A DNA stretch of 64,000 bases from Podarcis cretensis (lineage: Eukaryota), in the NCBI GenBank assembly GCA_951804945.1, contig OX638154.1, positions 71,734,001 to 71,798,000 on the forward strand, given 5' to 3'. Below are positions 3,855 to 58,811 of this stretch, piece by piece (the first letter of the stretch is position 1; every line of letters begins with the position of its first letter). Both the position numbers and the translations under genes were made by a program. The notes below the pieces were generated by a model. It worked only from the letters and a program-made list of their open reading frames with translations. It was not told the DNA's origin and made no database searches.

Positions 3855-4020
3855 GATAGCTCAGTCGGTAGAGCATTAGGCTCTTAATCTCAGGGCCGCA
3901 GGTTCAAACCTTGTGTTGGGTGAAAGATTCCTGCATTGCAAGGGGTTAGATTATATGCAGGGCGTTGGATAACATATGACCCTCATGTCCCTCCCAACTC
4001 TCAGCATTCTATGATTCTGT
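3855..4020 (+). mobile_element. tRNA-Lys-derived SINE with CR1-type 3' tail
   Basis: Head gatagctcagtcggtagagcat..ctcttaatctcaggg..ggttcaa resembles tRNA-Lys(CTT); tail ends ccaactct..attctatgattct. Confidence 0.8.
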
Positions 4021-15923: not shown

Positions 15924-16725
15924 CCGCATTTTTCGCTCTATAGGACGCACTTTTCCCCCTCCAAAAATTAAGGGGAAATTTGTGAGCATCCTATGGAGCA
16001 AATGCAGGCTACTTGGCTTCAACGATAGCAACGCAAAGCCTCCGAAGTGCAGAGGGAGCGCTCCCTCCGCGCTCCGGGGGTTTCGCATTGCTTTCGCTGA
16101 AGCCTGGAGAGCGAGAGGGGTCTTCCTGGCTTCAGCAAAAGGAACCCGAAGCCTGTGGAGCACAGCAGGAACTCGTGCTGCACTCTGAAGGCTTCAGGGA
16201 TCTTAGAGGCTGGTGGTGGTGGAAAGCAGCGCTTCCCCCCACCGCCAGCCCCACAAGCTCGGGGTGCAGCGGGAAGGCTGCTCCCAAACCTGGTCTTTGG
16301 GGCTGGCAGTGGGGGAAACCAGCGCTTCCCCCACCGCCAGCCCCAAAGAGCAGGTCGAAAGGAACCCGGAGCCCCCGGAGCCCATCAGGAACTCCCACCA
16401 CGCTCCTGAGGCTTCGGGTTGCCTTCACTGAAGCCTGGAGAGCACCCTCTTGCTCTCCAGGCTTCCAAGGAACTCCCGCTCACCTTGACCGCACAGAACG
16501 CACCTTGTTTTAAAGGGGGAGAACAAGAAAACAAAAATCTCCCCCTCTCTGCGCAGCACCCCTTCAGTGAAGCGGCATGAGAAATGGAAGGGGCTCTGTT
16601 TCTCCTGCCGCTTCACTGAAAGGGGGGCGCTGAGCAGAGAGGGGGAGAATTCTTTTCCTTGTTCTCCCCCTCTAAAACAAGGTGTGTCCTATGGTCGCGT
16701 AGGTCCTATAGAGCGAAAAATACAG
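15924..16725 (+). mobile_element. Tc2/pogo-like MITE, long variant (802 bp)
   Basis: Same TIRs and arms as 2905-3436 with extra internal modules; TA duplications. Confidence 0.9.
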
Positions 16726-43806: not shown

Positions 43807-44980
43807 CTAGAAGCAAAATCATAACCTTACAACATGGCACAGGTTTGCCACCTAAGGAATACTAAGGTTGTAAGTTAAATACCAAGCACAAACACAGTTT
43901 TCAGTAAGCCCAGTAGAAGCATCAAGATATTCATGCAAGACCCCAAAGGTGCTGAGAGACATGCAGATTGTATCATTGGCACGCAGTACTAGTTTTTCGC
44001 CAAAAAAAGACATAACGGTTATCAATATTCTATGGAGTACTCTGCCAGAGATATAACGAAATAAATTAATATTGTTGGCATCCATCTGTCTCGGGAGACA
44101 ATGGAGGAGTGTGCCTTGGGGGTGGAGTCAAACTGTTGGAAGCCTGGAAATTACTATCAGGTGATAAAATAAGTTGAAACTGAGAATTACAAAGGACATC
44201 AGTTTGCTTCTTTGGAGGCAATGAATGCTTTCTACATAGAGAGATAGTCAGCCAGTAGGCAAAATCGTCTTTAGGCTATATGTAGCAAAGTTGTTTAGAA
44301 AATTGCCCCAAAGGCTCCTTTATTAGGAACCCATAAAAGGCTTAATAAATAAGCCACAGGGAGAGAAATCTCTCTCTCTCTCCACTCTTGGAAATTCAAT
44401 AATCCCATTATGACCAGAGGACGCAATAACCTCTGATAGGAATTACATGCTCTCAGCTTATCATGTGATGACTCTAATTCCCATAAAAGCAATAAAACAT
44501 TTAAACTTGACCTGTGAGGAATCTATCCATCAAAACTGCTTACTACAACTTCATCGTCCACACTGGGACAGTAAAAACTAGCTGTTTTGTTTGTTCAGTT
44601 TTGTTCAGAATAGCACAAAAAAAACCCCCAATTAATTTCACTACCTCCATATTCCAGGTTTGGAAGTTCCTGAGGCCAGGGGAAACTTAGACCCACAATA
44701 GATTTGTTGGCGTTCCAGAAGGCACAGACTGCTTTTATCCCTCCACTTCTTGTATCATACAAACACATCATGTCTCCATGACTGAAAAGAGCAGGAGAGA
44801 GCAGCTTTCATCCCACTGCGATGCAGGTGTACTACCCCAAACTAAAGAAGTGAAGGATATGGTGCATCCAACAAAGGCAACATTATTTATAGCAAAAGTA
44901 AATAAATAAGGGTAATGCTCTAAGCAGCAAAAATTAAATGCAGAAGAATGCAGTGGTTGTTATTTTTTAATTAACTCTAC

Positions 44981-46080
44981 CTGGCAGCCTCTTTTTTCAA
45001 TCTCTATAATGCACTTCTTCATCAACAGGGGCACCATCAAGCCTACGTTTTCCTTCTCCACAACCTTCCGAGCATCTACTCCAAACATTACCGGTTCTCT
45101 TTCTCCATCTAGTCCATTGAGAGAATTCTCCCACTGCTCCAGGAGGGTCAGCTTGACATAAATAATACCTCGGGGCTCCAGCTTTACTGCCAACTGATGA
45201 GTCTTCGTCACCCGGAAAAGAGCAGGGAGGACCACCGTCCCATGGCAGCAGACCCGGTTTTTCCTCGGTGTGGGCTCCCAACTGAAGACCACCAATTTCA
45301 AATGCTGGGCGTTCTCTATTTCTATGTTGAAAGTGTGATCCATGTCCAAAAAGGTCGTCCTGCACGTCAGCAAGGCAGTCCTCGCTTTGTTTACCGAATC
45401 TACCTGAATGGCGCAGAAGACGTCTCTGGAGTCCATCCTTGGCGGTTTCAGGTCCTCCGCGCCATAGAAATGGATGCTCATGAGTCCAGATATGTACTGG
45501 GAACATTTAGGTTGGTCGGAGAAACTGTAGTGCCTGAAAGCGTCAATGTCTATTTCCGCCTTACTACCGTTGCTGCTTGGGAATGCTTCCTTTCCTCCTT
45601 TCCCAGCCCGGCTTTCGAGGCCGTGCTTCCCTGATTTTGTTATAAGCTCAGGAGAGTCTCCATCGCTGAGGTAGCCCCCTTTGCTGAAGGATTTCGAATT
45701 GCCACTGCTTTTCTTTTTGTAGTTGTGCTGAGAGGACACGCTGCTGTCAAGATGGTACCGGCTTATGACGTTCCTGCTAGCTGCTGCCGTGATGTTCCCG
45801 GAAGAAGGCAGCGACCCGTGACCTATGACCTGGCAGTTGTTCTTAAGCAACGAAGAATTGTCCGTGCTACTATGGCTTGAATTTCCCTTGACACTCAGCT
45901 TCCTGCTCAGCTCTGGCAATTTTTTCATTTTCATGGAAAGTTTCCTCACCGTTCTCGGGGATTTAATTTTGTCAGGGAAGGACCAGTTTATCGAACCACC
46001 TTTCTTCAAAGGGTTCGGACTCGGAGGAGAACCTTCTGCCGCTCCCATCTCGGACTTGCTTGCAGACAAGATCCCAGGAC
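44981..46080 (-). CDS. SYDE2: SYDE2 coding exon 3 (C2 domain and start of RhoGAP)
   Basis: aag acceptor, gtagag donor; 1100 nt; [27 protein letters not shown]...EIEKRGCQ. Confidence 0.97.
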
Positions 46081-48986
46081 CTTTGCAGGGGTGGGGAAAA
46101 GAGGAAAGGGACATATTAAAAATGAAGGGAAAGGATACTTTAATTTAAGAAGCTACTAATTTGCCAGGACCTGAAAAAGATATGTGTGGTATTATTCAGG
46201 ACAACGCAGAGCATCAGATGCACCTACAACATGCTCTGACCTATGGACTGTACTTTTCTGCCTTGTTCTGCCAAAAGCAGAACCACACAAGGAACCTGCC
46301 CCATCCTTCCCTTAAGAATCTGCCTCAGAACAATTAACCGATCCCTGCCCGGTTATGTACTGTTTTGTCTCTCTGCATTGCCTTCTCAGACTTGTTAATT
46401 TAGCTTCTTTCAGAAGAAGAGACTCCTGGATGCAACTGCTCTGTGCAAGCAAGTCATTTGAAAAAAAGACTCCTGTGCCTTGTCTGCAGGTCAAGCCACT
46501 GGAAAAGAATGGAAAATTAAAGGGGACCCAACTTTGCTCTAGAACTTGCATCTTTTTAACAGCTGCATTCTGTTTCAGTGTAATTTGCCCCCTCTTGTCA
46601 AACAACCATGTCCCCCTCTGCTTCTGATGGGCAGGGTGGAGATGGAATGCTTTTGAAAGTCTTTTAACAGTTCTAACTTGCCTTGCTTCTTCAAGCCCTA
46701 AAGTGTTCTCTTCCTTTCTTGCACAATGCCCCTTTCTGTGTGTCATGGAAAGCTGCTGGCTCCCAGGTGATAGTCACCTAGGAATTAAGAAAGCATCCAG
46801 TGGATTCAACAAAGGATTACCAGCTTGCGTGCTGATCCAGGATGACTGTTCTTTTTTTTTAAAAAAAAAAAATTATCATAGCCAGGAGAAGAAAAACTGA
46901 GCATTAATCAGGAGCCCTGCATCCTGTGGTTGCATGAGGGCATCATAACAAATTAAGCTTTATTACGGTAAGCCTAGGTGAGTCTTGAGGAGGAGATCGG
47001 AAGCTCTGGCTTCTGTTTTGACTAACTACAGGGTTTGGAGAAATGTGACCTCTAAACCGTGGTTAATCTTAACTATGGTTTGCTGAAATAGGCCAGCTTC
47101 CTAACACCTAATTTCTCCAGTAAAATTATTTTTATCTGCCTTGGCTTTTCCAGATGACCTGTTTATTGAGGGTTCATCCTGATTTGTTTGCAGAAAGATT
47201 ACCGGTAAATGATCAGCATTTAGATTTTTTCCCAAGGAGCCTGGAAAACGTTGCAATGAAGCAAAAATTATACCACACTTTCCATTGCATTTTCGTTCAC
47301 TTTCCATATCAGAAAGAGTCCTACCTTTTAAGGAAGCAGTTTCGTTGCACAAGAAGCTTCCAAATCAGCTTTGATTTCACAAGCTGAATTTGCCAGTATA
47401 TGACTGAATCCAATCAGAAAATAGCAAAGAACCTGCAAGTACTCTTATTTACTATTGTACTTCACTATGCTCATGTTTAGCAGTCTGTAAGTTTTCCAAA
47501 CAAATAAGATAAACCATGCATGTTTTTTGTTGGGTTCTGACAAAACAAGCTGTAGTTAATGAAAAACAAAAGCACCTGCTCTCCTTGTGAGTTACAGTTT
47601 AGTGCAAAGTCTCAATTGGCAAAGCATGGTTTGAGAACAGCCAGCAAACTAGAATCCGAAACTATAGAATATGTTTCAGCTAACCGTTGTGCTGCGAAAT
47701 TTTTGAACTGACCATAGTTGTTATGCTATCTCTGGAAGCTCTTGCACCAAGAAACAAGATTGCTGACGAGATGAAAAGTAAAAGCAGGCATGTATCTCTA
47801 AAAAAGTTGGCCCATATGCTGGGAACTCAAACAACAATCTGGAATCTAAACTATGGTTAGTGCGAACCACTCTCTCTAAACTGAGAGAGAAAAACAGTGG
47901 CTTTATTTCGATTTTCTCTCTTTGGATTTACAGAGCTATATCAAAAACGTAATTCACATTTTCATAATTCACAACAACTGGCGAATTCACAGAACTGGTC
48001 ATAATTCATAGGACCTGGTCAGGTGATATTCTAGAATACTGTATATTACTGTCTTTCTGACAGTTTCTCTTTAGCAGTATCTGCTAAACCACTTCCTAAT
48101 TTTTGTTATCAAAGCAGACTCTACTGAGGCTGCGACTTCACAAGAAGCTGTTAACAAGACAGTTGCTCCACTACAAAGTTATTTCATCTGGATATTTTGG
48201 ACCAGCAGCTATTGAGTGTACATGTGATTACGTTACAAAGAACCCTTCCACCACCACTGCCCCAATCCAAAAATCCCATACACCTAAGAAGCCAGCATAC
48301 TTCCAAAACTAACAAAATTCTCTCATGAGCCTTTCATAGACCAATAGGTTAACAAATGCCTATTTATCTAATTTTAGCAATGACCATATTTTGGACAGAA
48401 TAAGAATTGAAGATTCAATAACATTAGCATTGCCCAAAAAACTACTCTCATGCCAAGAGAGACTCAGGTGAAATATTATTCAGTTTATCCCTTTACTTAT
48501 GATGTATAGCGGCTGCTCACTGCAAGACACATGCAAAGGTCATTAGAAAGCAGTTAGGTTAGGATTCATAACAAGAAGAGTTTCCTTAGTTTCCTAGTCT
48601 ACGCAAAAGGGACCAGACTGAACCTCTAGGCCATCACTTCCTAACCTACAATGAGAAGAGGGACTGAGGAAGTACTTCCATCAGTCACAGCAGCAAAAAG
48701 TTCAAATAGTCACACTGCATTCTCACTTCCGGTGATAAAAATTCCTGCTTGAAGGAAAAATAAAATGAATGTTTAAACAACACTATAATACAAAATGATT
48801 TCCTCCCTCCCTTTTTTATTAAAAAAAAAATACGCACCAAGTATTTCTACTGGTAACTATGTACTACACATCTTTAATGCACTTTGCTTAGAAATACCAA
48901 ACCTGTTGCCTACTCACACAGGACAAAGCAGGCATGATTCTTCAATACCCATGCCACGTTTCAAGTTAGAAAACGAAACTCAACAA

Positions 48987-49179
48987 CAGTTACAGATAGG
49001 TAGCCGTGTTGGTCTGCCATAGTCAAAACAAAAAAAATTCCTTCCAGTAGCACCTTAAAGACCAACTAAGTTAGTTCTTGGTATGAGCTTTCGTGTGCAC
49101 GGGTATCTGAAGAAGTGTGCATGCACACGAAAGCTCATACCAAGAACTAACTTAGTTGGTCTTTAAGGTGCTACTGGAA
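48987..49179. mobile_element. Penelope-derived mini-insertion with inverted pseudo-LTR arrangement
   Basis: 12-bp TSD GAAACTCAACAA (48975-48986, 49180-49191); perfect 59-bp inverted repeat; near-identical to 57028-57160. Confidence 0.85.
49102..49141 (+). ncRNA. Minimal type-I hammerhead ribozyme motif (PLE-associated)
   Basis: Stem I GGUAU/AUACC; CUGAAGA; extra A; stem II GUGUG-CAUG-CACAC; GAAA; palindromic AGCU stem III; UC cleavage site. Confidence 0.7.
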
Positions 49180-49499
49180 GAAACTCAACAAGTTAAAGTT
49201 CATCAAAATCCTTCAGGAAGCTGAATAATTCTCTTCCCAGATACGAATTCACAAGGAGCTTCATTTTTTAAAAAAAGACCAAAAAAAAAAAAAAGTTAAA
49301 AGAATACAATGCTGCACAAAGTCTGTTTTCCAAACGCCTCAATGAATCTTCTTGTTTCTCCCAGTTGCTACGCTTCTGTTGAAGCTGTTTCCTTGCAGGG
49401 AACAGACTATTTCTAGCACGCCTGCTGTGCTTTTCTGGCAAGCAGCTCGCAAGAAATGCGGTGTTTGATAAAACCGGACAAAGGCTTCCCTTAAGGGAT

Positions 49500-49577
49500 G
49501 GCATCCAATTTCGTTGCACTTGTGCAATGTTGCACTTGTGTAATGACAATAAAGAATTTATCTTTATCTTTATCTTG
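49500..49577 (+). mobile_element. Possible Rex1/Babar-like LINE 3' end
   Basis: aatttcgttgcacttgtg..aatgacaataaag followed by (TTTATC)n tail. Confidence 0.5.
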
Positions 49578-55000: not shown

Positions 55001-55528
55001 CAATTTAGAAACAATGTTAGGCGTATCCCTATAGACAGCACTATTAAGAAAAATGTTCAATAAGTTGTAATGGGCAATTTGTGTTATATAGTTTGTTCTA
55101 AGAACTGAACAAAAATTAAAATGTCAGTTCTACGCAAACAAAAATCAACGGCAGATCTCATATAGTAGGATATAACTAATTCCCAATCATGGCAGAAAAT
55201 AGTGTTTCAGCAAACCTACTAGAAGAATGATTGGGAGAGATGTTTCTACATGAGCAAATGAAAGTTTCAGAATTCGTTACAGAAGAAAACTAAAGTAGGC
55301 CTAGTGAAACTAAAGCTTTCTAAAAGAGTAAGTCTGGTTAAAAAAATCAGTTCATTTCTGAATGAAGATGAATTGATCAAGCTGTATGAGTGAATTAACG
55401 CTTACGTAAGACTTGAACTTCCAGAGAAATGGGACTTTCAGCTTACCCCAAAATGATAGCTAGTACCACCTTATGAAATGTAATATTTAACAACATCGCT
55501 GTAGGTTAAATGTTTGCACTCCTCTTAC

Positions 55529-56227
55529 CTCCCACAGTACCTTTTAATGTAGGGCTATCTTCCACTGCAAACCCAGTCTGAATACTGCACGTAGGCTTTT
55601 GTTTGTGTACTTGCAAATGTTCCATGGAATGTACAGCATCTACTTCATAAATTTCCCTGGGCAGAGTGTTTCCGACACAGTCTAGGACGTGTGCGAGGCC
55701 TTCGTTAGGCCTTACGACTTTAACCAAGTCATTCCCAGAAGGCACCTTGCAATTAATGGCTTGAGGGTCCAAATGGTCAGCATTACAACCAGGGAAATTG
55801 GGCTCATCGTCTTCAGGGATAGGGTTGTACCATATTTCTCCTTCATCATCTGCATCGTTATCATCCCCAAAATCTAAAGTACAGTTTTGCCGTGCCAAAG
55901 AGCTTGCCCCATTCTCAACAGCTCGTACGCAACCCATTCTTCTTTTAGGGCTTTCATGCCCTAGAAGCTTGGGGAAAAGGTGAGGCATCTTCGGCTCAAG
56001 CAATGGGCTGGGCGATTTCTGTCTCTGGTGCGTTTCTCTTGAAATTTTCTTATACGAGTTTCCTTTTTCCAAACTGGGCACCCTTGGAGAACTTTGATGT
56101 AGCCAGTTACGTTTCTTGGACACGGTGATGCTGGCAATCCGAGGCCTGCACTCAGCGACTTCGGTGGATTTGAAGTTCTTAAGTTCTCTTCTGCTCACCG
56201 ACGGTATGTACACTGTTTCAATCAAAT
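55529..56227 (-). CDS. SYDE2: SYDE2 coding exon 2 (D)LIETVY...SITVSKKRNWL...DADDEGEIWYNPIPEDD...EDSPTLKGTVG
   Basis: cag acceptor, gtaaga donor; 699 nt, phase 1-1. Confidence 0.94.
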
Positions 56228-56347
56228 CTGTAAAGGATGGGGAAGAGGGAAACAGAGAGAGCAAATTGAAATTGGGGAGTGGGGTGGTCTACAGCAGCAC
56301 ATTGCAAGTGTCCAGAAAGCCTGAAAAAAGCTTCTGTTTCATAGACG

Positions 56348-57027: not shown

Positions 57028-57160
57028 AGTATCTGAAGAAGTGTGCATGCACACGAAAGCTCATACCAAGAACTAACTTAGTTGGTCTTTAAGGTGCTAC
57101 TGGAAGGATTTTTTTTATTTTGTTTTGACTATGGCAGACCAACACGGCTACCTATCTGTA
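57028..57160 (+). mobile_element. Penelope-derived mini-insertion (single pseudo-LTR end)
   Basis: 14-bp TSD ACTAGGAAAATCCT (57014-57027, 57161-57174); ends cagaccaacacggctacctatctgta. Confidence 0.87.
57029..57066 (+). ncRNA. Minimal type-I hammerhead ribozyme motif (PLE-associated)
   Basis: Stem I GUAU/AUAC; core identical to 49103-49140. Confidence 0.65.
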
Positions 57161-58811
57161 ACTAGGAAAATCCTGTAATTTTACTAGAACATGGAAGCGG
57201 GGTTTAAGAAAAGTTTCGCTGTGTTACTGTCTCCTATGGAACAAATTAACATTTAAAGTTATTAGGCAAAATAAAATTGTACAAATGAAGCCATTAGGCA
57301 GAACATTTCCCATCAGCCAATCAAACTCGGGATTACGACCAAGAACAGAATAGAACTTGACTTCATTTAACTTTACCCATGCCTCCATACAACCTATTCA
57401 AGCAGACAGGATTCATTCTACCTATTTTTAAAAACGCAAATGGGTAAGTTCTTTGTTAAAATACTACTACTAATAATAATCACTCGCTATGTTGGTTTAT
57501 ATATTTTGTTATTACTCAAAATCTGAAAGGCTAAAGTCCGCCCCTGTATGGGGCAAGAAGCATTCCTACATCTCAACCCAGATTTCTGGAGTAAGTCTTT
57601 TTCTTTTCCTGTGACTACTCAAGTCTGTACAATTAACAGGCACCTTGTAATTATGTGCATTTTTACCTTCCCATGTCTGTAAAACAATACACAGAATGTA
57701 GTACCATTGTGCAACCAATACTTAGAATGCTCTGGCTAATTATATTTTTCTGAAGCAGTGTTTTGCAATAAATCTAGGAGGATTTAGAGCAATGAAACTT
57801 TAAACCAGGCATAATCCTAAAACAGAACTTAAAACAAAACTGGGGAGGGGAGAGGCACCCTCGAAAAGCATTTTCCACTGAAGCTATTCCACACACACTT
57901 ATGTGGAAAAGTTAAAACATGAAAGAAACTGTATTAAAAAGCAACTGCTTCTTTCAGTTAAGATTAGAGACCACACACTGTTAAAGAGGAGTATTTGAAT
58001 AAATAAGTTATTAACGTTTAATTTACAAGCTGGTTCATTCATTATAAAAAGCACCGATACCTGCTAATGCAAGTGACTATTTCACACAAGCACTGTTAAC
58101 ACTAAAGTGGACATCCTGGAGCTTTGTTAAATGTTCTGGCTTTCCTGCAAGATCTAGACTGATCACAGCCATGGCTGTGGGAGAATGGGCCACTTGAGGG
58201 TACTGGGGGCCAGTTGCCATGAAATGCCCCTGGGGGCAACATTTGCAGAGGAGGAGGAGACTCCCTTCTCTTTAACTGCCCCGTAGAAATGAGAATTTTG
58301 ACAGGAGCACTTGCTGAAATTCCCTTTCCTGTGCAGTCTGTTTCTTTACAACTGAGCACCTTAGCAAGATACACATCTCTGTGTTTGTAGGACCATGAAG
58401 CAATTCACAAGTGTCCACCCTATATTAAAAGGGCAAGTTTTCCCTCCTCCATTAGGGACAAGTTAGGAAAGCTAACAGCCCTCCGGAGAGCAGATTCTCA
58501 ACACATAACTCATATCCATAGCTACTCAACATTAATCACACATGTACAAACTAGACCTAAGGCTATGTCTAGTTTACAACAACAGCAGAAGCAAGTTTAA
58601 CAAGGGCAAAGCACCACAGCGATCCTGTAGATTTATTGCAGCAATCCTAATTAGAAGTTATTTAAGGTGGGGGGCGGGGGGTGCTAAGATGCAATGAGAA
58701 AACATATTCAAACCCTGTGTAGTCTTTGAATTGTGTGATCTTATTACCTGGAAGTAAATCCCGCAGAACACCATGGGGCTTGCTTACGAGGAAGCATGCC
58801 TCAGTCTACAC

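Follow-up and report, generated by a model that had tools for sequence, protein, structure and literature searches.

Results

A hairpin in an intron of SYDE2

We analysed a 64,000-nucleotide stretch of the Podarcis cretensis genome, referred to here as the window, in which a hairpin of 193 bases (48987-49179) lies within the gene SYDE2. This host gene is encoded on the minus strand, and its product matches at 99% the protein named SYDE2 of Podarcis lilfordi, the closest named protein. The hairpin is located between coding exons 2 and 3, and its placement in SYDE2 intron 2 by an earlier model-made description of the window (hereafter the sequence-only reading) holds when introns are counted by coding exons. 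The features that matter here are listed by position, with the leader of a Penelope-like element (PLE) as the source of both arms and TSD denoting the target-site duplication.

44978-46081, minus strand: SYDE2 coding exon 3, with the C2_SYDE domain, downstream of the host intron (tblastn)
48975-48986, plus strand: left TSD copy, 12 bp, where empty sites have a single copy
48987-49099, minus strand: long arm, PLE leader that begins midway in stem II (leader position 19) and continues across the U-tract and the 'tail'
49041-49180, no strand assigned: perfect inverted repeat of 59 bp with a 22-nt loop, the overlap of the two arms
49100-49102, plus strand: three non-native junction bases, of which G49102 is likely a cap-derived extra G
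49103-49140, plus strand: minimal type-I hammerhead motif, recognised from sequence, which folds as such without the long arm; cleavage predicted after 49136
49103-49179, plus strand: short arm, PLE leader beginning at the presumed 5' end of the RNA and stopping just short of the U-tract; 1 nt belongs to the right TSD as well
49115-49128, no strand assigned: stem II palindrome, 14 nt, also a preferred joining site in the hairpins of the family
49180-49191, plus strand: right copy of the 12-bp TSD
55527-56234, minus strand: SYDE2 coding exon 2, upstream of the host intron (tblastn)
57029-57163, plus strand: second family copy in SYDE2 intron 1, a solo leader that starts at position 0, reaches the end of the tail and is flanked by a 14-bp TSD

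Over 59 nt, the arm at 49041-49099 is the exact reverse complement of that at 49122-49180, and base 49180 is both the last base of the right arm and the first base of the TSD; the exact arms, the 22-nt loop and the 12-bp TSD given in the sequence-only reading were all confirmed in the sequence. Folding yielded z-scores of -17 for the plus strand and -19 for the minus strand, and none of 200 shuffles was as stable. Leader positions are measured along the 134-nt copy at 57030-57163 and numbered such that window base 49104 is position 1, and in these terms the long arm covers positions 19-135 and the short arm positions 0-77. The complete hammerhead motif of the hairpin is antisense to SYDE2, with no TATA box upstream in the stub, and SYDE2-sense RNA, as had been claimed from the letters, contains just the 3' half of the motif and lacks the 5' half of the core. 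The solo leader at 57029-57163 likewise carries its complete hammerhead antisense to SYDE2.

In 48900-49300, the best Rfam microRNA match was mir-559, which scored 61.8 bits where the gathering score is 95, and this through pairing only. A microRNA or leader identity from Rfam was rejected, as all scores were below gathering and reflect the long stem alone. Elsewhere in the window, Rfam returned a lin-4 match at 16284-16360 on the minus strand (40.4 against a gathering score of 40), within a repeat-like G+C-rich stretch, and a partial tRNA at 3857-3914 on the plus strand (33.1 against 29), which is perhaps the head of a SINE. A segment of 84 bp at 49490-49573, 300 bp from the hairpin, is high-copy, ends in a short tandem repeat and is absent from contigs of the three sequencing runs X1, X5 and X7; it is likely another recent retroposon stub.

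The parent Penelope-like element

A protein search of the genome retrieved copies with open frames of 925 codons, four of which were fetched (L204 to L207). The intact parent unit measures 3,011 bp and occurs in tandem, with three leaders at 3,011-bp spacing in L204, which corresponds to the pseudo-LTR arrangement. Its ORF of 910 aa encodes a reverse transcriptase (RT) as well as a C-terminal GIY-YIG domain; in the L204 ORF, RVT_1 was matched at E=9e-12 and GIY-YIG at 22.6 bits, which is at the Pfam cut-off, and another copy (L009) reached 25.8 bits for GIY-YIG. L204 (G000:C14:51054500-51064000) holds two intact 910-aa Neptune-type ORFs in tandem, intact ORFs were also present in L205, L206 and L207, and the family is probably still active in the lizard.

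A CX4CxxC linker lies at residue 770 of the L204 ORF, between the RT and the endonuclease (EN), in agreement with the CX2-5CxxC motif that marks the Neptune and Nematis clades in this position (PMC8557442). By this linker, the parent would belong to Neptune or Nematis, and we assumed Neptune, the host being a vertebrate. An RT and a GIY-YIG domain in a single ORF, tandem pseudo-LTRs, and an inverted, 5'-truncated copy with a one-sided tail and a TSD, which together characterize EN+ PLEs, were all found.

The leader opens with the hammerhead, which occupies 37 nt, and closes with the tail, a 33-nt segment that includes the ATG and carries the first 11 codons of the ORF. Upstream of many family copies we found the end of the GIY-YIG coding sequence and a TATA box. 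A guessed continuation of the leader was discarded after none of 11 loci ran into the ORF, and the real continuation was given by the intact copies. That these intact PLE copies carry the leader bears out the earlier suggestion of a PLE minimal hammerhead with an inverted pseudo-LTR. Genome counts were obtained by pattern searches of the assembly, and the 30-nt core had 7,956 exact copies in the 1.5-Gb genome against 0 for the reversed control.

Over 113 nt, the long arm matches three of the four fetched copies exactly (L204, L205 and L206), and over 78 nt the short arm matches all four (L204 to L207). Judging from these matches, the feature is an extremely truncated head-to-head stub of a young Neptune-type PLE. 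In contigs of three of four sequencing runs (X1, X5 and X7), the sequence passes directly from 48974 to 49180, representing an empty site. These runs carry three organism labels, including the closest one, and originate from two studies; run X8 was uninformative, with no coverage of the flanks. Contigs show presence rather than absence, so the empty-site samples may also carry a filled allele. Given the empty sites and the perfect identity to intact copies, the hairpin, with no substitutions relative to its source copies, is a very recent insertion.

Head-to-head hairpins across the genome

Short head-to-head hairpins, searched for as two opposed half-motifs at most 45 nt apart, were found at 952 loci, with a pattern that limits arm starts to about -2 to 25 and leaves out loci with two complete arms. 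The detailed analysis concerns the first 50 listed of these 952, all on contig C1. Head-to-head orientation also prevailed among neighbouring pairs less than 1 kb apart (27 head-to-head, one tail-to-tail and one direct, in a sample made up of the first 100 entries in the list of 10,312 copies of a downstream word).

Across the 50 hairpins listed, the ends were asymmetric, with the tail end on one side and the U-tract on the other. One arm ended at 129-134 in 46 of them and the other arm at 94-100 in 28, and there was no hairpin in which both arms reached 129. The long inverted copies L205 and L207 follow this same end rule. TSDs of 12-14 bp accompanied 37 of the 50, and none was found in seven. 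The window locus belongs to the commonest class of hairpin, and its short-arm end at 77 falls earlier than the modal range of 94-100. The high copy number, the similar outline and the few recurring junction types could be expected of a non-autonomous family, MITE-like or retrozyme-like, whose transposing unit is the hairpin. We consider this extremely unlikely, as inner junctions and short-arm ends vary by locus, so that each hairpin was built afresh, and the 12-14 bp TSDs and the end rule match those of the longer insertions of the parent.

Compared with where the long arm starts, the start of the short arm was further 5' in 29 of the 50 hairpins listed, in which the arms are thus not nested, further 3' in 15 and the same in six. 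The arm with the RNA 5' end was the short one in 23 cases and the long one in six (P=0.002, first 50 hairpins listed). Inner joints had 0-4 nt of overlap in 32 of these hairpins and 1-6 added bases in another 12; in the remaining six, the joint comprised the entire 14-nt stem II palindrome, and perfect palindromes centred on stem II likewise numbered six of the 50. In 26 very tight hairpins, the centres fell on recurring short palindromic words, with no pile-up at the cleavage site. Half of the short hairpins listed (25 of 50, found with a pattern that omits loci with two complete arms) had no arm with both the core and stem I.

We also compared the arms in 94 pairs, a set with approximate de-duplication and a bias towards the subfamily of the window hairpin. 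A variant at the four diagnostic sites was present in 13 pairs, eight concordant and five discordant. The arms share rare subfamily variants beyond the expectation for independent templates, which excludes two random RNAs, and both arms come mostly from one source copy or were homogenised later.

The hammerhead motif and its fold

The motif combines a native stem I of 4 bp, a bulged A, a self-complementary stem II of 5 bp and a palindromic AGCU instead of stem III; the conserved core, the bulged base, the G-C pair closing stem II and the palindromic remnant of stem III are those of a minimal type-I hammerhead. The core on the plus strand, the self-complementary 14-nt stem II, the AGCU palindrome and the predicted site after C49136 had all been recognized in the sequence-only reading and stand. 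The fifth stem I pair that it included does not: G49102 is non-native, with T in its place in the intact copies, and given that this G is read as a cap-copied extra base, the pair would be a product of the junction. An extra A before stem II had been taken as a departure from the consensus; in metazoan PLE hammerheads, an extra nucleotide at this place in fact counts among the conserved features (PMC4209133). The covariance-model search proposed as a check returned no Rfam hammerhead match, either in the window at gathering score or in 48900-49300 with E values as high as 10.

Covariation of stems I and II, the absence of which had been named as a refuting observation, was no better than in slid controls in a 7-row alignment, and the young family is nearly invariant. 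The older copies L125, L128 and L129 have different stems II of 6-7 bp; together with L114 and L137, they represent decayed hammerhead-like motifs of greater age, which share the bulged A, have an AGCUU end, differ in their 6-7 bp stem II and probably derive from an older PLE family. A loose hammerhead pattern, with 255 matches compared to 323 for its reversed control, offered no evidence, and the commonest other motif that it retrieved forms no stems and presumably sits in RTE/BovB-like coding sequence. Family copies aligned at window position 49129 showed G>A at core G12, a CpG, in ~12-18% of depth, and those at 49136 showed C>T at the cleavage base in 8-15% of depth, so many genomic copies have a decayed core.

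The computed cost of the hammerhead fold was ~33 kcal/mol in the context of the hairpin compared to 1.7 kcal/mol without the long arm. Consistent with the sequence-only reading, hairpin and hammerhead folds are mutually exclusive on plus-strand RNA, and such RNA would be locked; nothing indicates selection for a lock, and the part of that reading which saw an antisense lock as a function could not be sustained. A functional lock on the ribozyme could draw on this fold cost, and a functional dsRNA element of SYDE2 pre-mRNA could draw on the 59-bp perfect stem, which also forms on the SYDE2-sense strand. If it were transcribed, ADAR or other dsRNA-binding proteins would take a perfect stem of this length as a substrate. 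We regard either function as very improbable, given variable junctions scattered over 952 loci, half of the 50 listed hairpins without a complete ribozyme, a site that is empty in three of four runs under three organism labels including the closest, zero substitutions from active source copies, and a complete motif on the strand opposite to SYDE2 with no TATA box upstream. The ribozyme in the hairpin is likely a passenger, not a switch.

In nearest-neighbour calculations, a strand-swapped 14-bp stem II duplex reached -39 kcal/mol against -21 kcal/mol for the active double hammerhead, a difference of about 18. Speculatively, this swapped duplex may be relevant to the dependence of such ribozymes on help from proteins.

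RNA 5' ends and the cleavage site

Native upstream sequence is kept in 2,654 copies, and a non-native base stands directly before the leader start (position 0) in 2,370. Among 100 listed of the latter, this preceding base was G in 72, A in 21 and C in seven, with 30 G expected (P about 7e-18 against 30%). We fetched 30 of the G loci and found native upstream sequence in one, and in inverted copies the G may belong to the opposite arm. Position 0 follows the first T of the TATA box by 33 nt. Reverse transcriptases can copy the cap as an extra base, and we infer that the RNA starts capped at leader position 0, its cap being copied as the extra base. A splice junction, considered for the sharp 5' boundary given the acceptor-like sequence upstream, was ruled out, since the boundary lies one base further on and abuts the leader directly in solo copies with a TSD found.

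Starts at the scissile site yielded 25 matches (24 loci) compared to 12 at a control position, using patterns that need two non-native letters and therefore catch slightly fewer than the one-base pattern. Seven of these starts were joins via stem I complementarity, and about five loci had both arms starting there. Cleaved RNA was rejected as the usual template, with no pile-up of ends at the scissile bond and a twofold excess over control as the residue; given that starts at the cleavage site are rare, uncleaved RNA is therefore the usual template. Most of 100 listed copies diverging just past the cleavage site were single-base variants. A single case among them (L096, G000:C5 near 79676233) had 15 extra A exactly at the cleavage site, and could represent RNA that was cleaved, adenylated and rejoined, or chance.

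Discussion

How the hairpin probably arose

While the locus is ordinary, the family is useful, as it is young, has intact copies and offers about 950 short inverted insertions, the ends of which bear on how PLEs form head-to-head pseudo-LTRs and one-sided tails and on the role of the hammerhead. By scattering long perfect hairpins through introns, the family is also a possible, putative source of dsRNA in these lizards.

We propose that the enzyme of the element probably made nicks in both strands, 12 bp from each other, and primed on uncleaved leader RNA a pair of cDNAs that were then joined, with the hairpin and its hammerhead as by-products that have no local role. We read these steps back from what is observed in finished genomic copies rather than intermediates, namely the identity to intact copies, the TSD, the site empty elsewhere, the recurrence across the genome and the asymmetric ends. 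The RNA would carry a cap and begin with the first base of stem I, the TATA box 30-33 nt ahead of it being supplied by the 3' end of the upstream copy. One cDNA would begin at the tail end, at leader position about 134, and at the window locus it would have stopped inside stem II. The other would begin close to the U-tract, at 77 here against a usual 94-100, and would reach the cap, adding an extra C. Joining of the 3' ends of the two cDNAs would then involve microhomology of 0-4 nt or the addition of a few bases. Both templates would come from one source copy, either as one tandem transcript or as sibling transcripts.

Two-strand priming and joining at sites bounding the tail would account for the asymmetry of the ends, for arms that are not nested and for the cap-like G on the short arm. 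In a different clade, the Poseidon protein of Anolis nicks and extends both strands in vitro, with two start sites that bound the tail, and hammerhead cleavage is not needed (PMC11167929).

The published explanation for inverted pseudo-LTRs is self-priming. A single cDNA, or an antisense RNA, would fold back and prime the second arm on itself at a palindrome or microhomology, endonuclease resolution would set the short end, and later central deletions would blur the nesting. The self-priming proposal came from palindromic junctions seen in rotifer PLEs (PMC3846280), and resolution mediated by EN has been put forward for the tail (PMC8557442). In our data, the six perfect palindromes on stem II and 15 more nested hairpins among the 50 listed speak for such a fold-back, and these 15 nested cases and the six with the same start count to that extent against two-strand priming. 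The variants shared between arms (eight concordant, five discordant) and the palindromic words recurring at the centres of the 26 tight hairpins fit it as well. However, fold-back predicts a second arm nested in the first, and 29 of the 50 listed are not nested. Random central deletion should also not be as one-sided as the 23 RNA 5' ends on the short arm compared to six on the long arm, and both the extra G on the short arm at the window locus and the two-strand extension shown in vitro for a relative (PMC11167929) argue against it. We therefore consider fold-back rather unlikely.

The counts favour two-strand priming over published self-priming, and suggest that the template is uncleaved, capped RNA. 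Extended to the family, our proposal would be that the approximately 950 hairpins record a PLE-specific twin priming that involves two strands, two RNA sites, one source and an uncleaved, capped template, with joins often made via stem II, and in which the hammerhead serves as a 5' leader and joining site and not as a processor of the template. We hold this broader statement to have about an even chance of being correct.

Comparison with known systems

The motif is of an already known type, and the Podarcis family is a further case of known PLE hammerheads and inverted insertions. EN+ PLE insertions with inverted pseudo-LTRs and a one-sided tail of 30-40 nt (PMC3846280, PMC8557442, PMC2377424) share with the lizard insertions the head-to-head arrangement, the tail and the TSD, as well as a leader overlapping the first codons of the ORF, a TATA box with initiator-like sequence, and palindromic junctions. 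Inverted repeats are the commonest form in Drosophila virilis (PMC2377424). Unlike these published cases, the lizard insertion is leader-only (193 bp) and occurs about 950 times, and can hence be counted; and whereas self-priming is the published explanation, the lizard junctions are mostly not nested. A literature search, with most subscription journals outside its scope, gave no paper on the Podarcis family and none with twin priming for the inverted ends of PLEs, and a term search of bioRxiv 10.64898/2026.07.22.740005, as far as its text was accessible, gave no relevant passage.

Metazoan PLE hammerheads (PMC4209133) have in common with the motif described here a short stem I, an unpaired base before stem II, the G10.1-C11.1 pair, a palindromic 15.2-16.2, the absence of stem III and mostly truncated copies. 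Pairs of PLE hammerheads on opposite strands, 100-700 bp apart, and low activity were also noted in these elements (PMC4209133). The lizard hammerhead, known here from its sequence, differs in having a 5-bp stem II that is fully self-complementary.

Poseidon_Ac of Anolis carolinensis (PMC11167929) is likewise a lizard PLE with an RT, a C-terminal GIY-YIG domain and a hammerhead in the pseudo-LTR, and it shares two preferred 3' ends bounding the tail and no sign of cleaved RNA as the template. The main text of that paper has no discussion of inverted insertions and draws no link between them and two-strand extension. In contrast to Poseidon_Ac, the Podarcis family has the CX4CxxC linker of Neptune and Nematis, and its ATG lies ~65 nt after the cleavage site, compared to a position within stem II in Poseidon_Ac.
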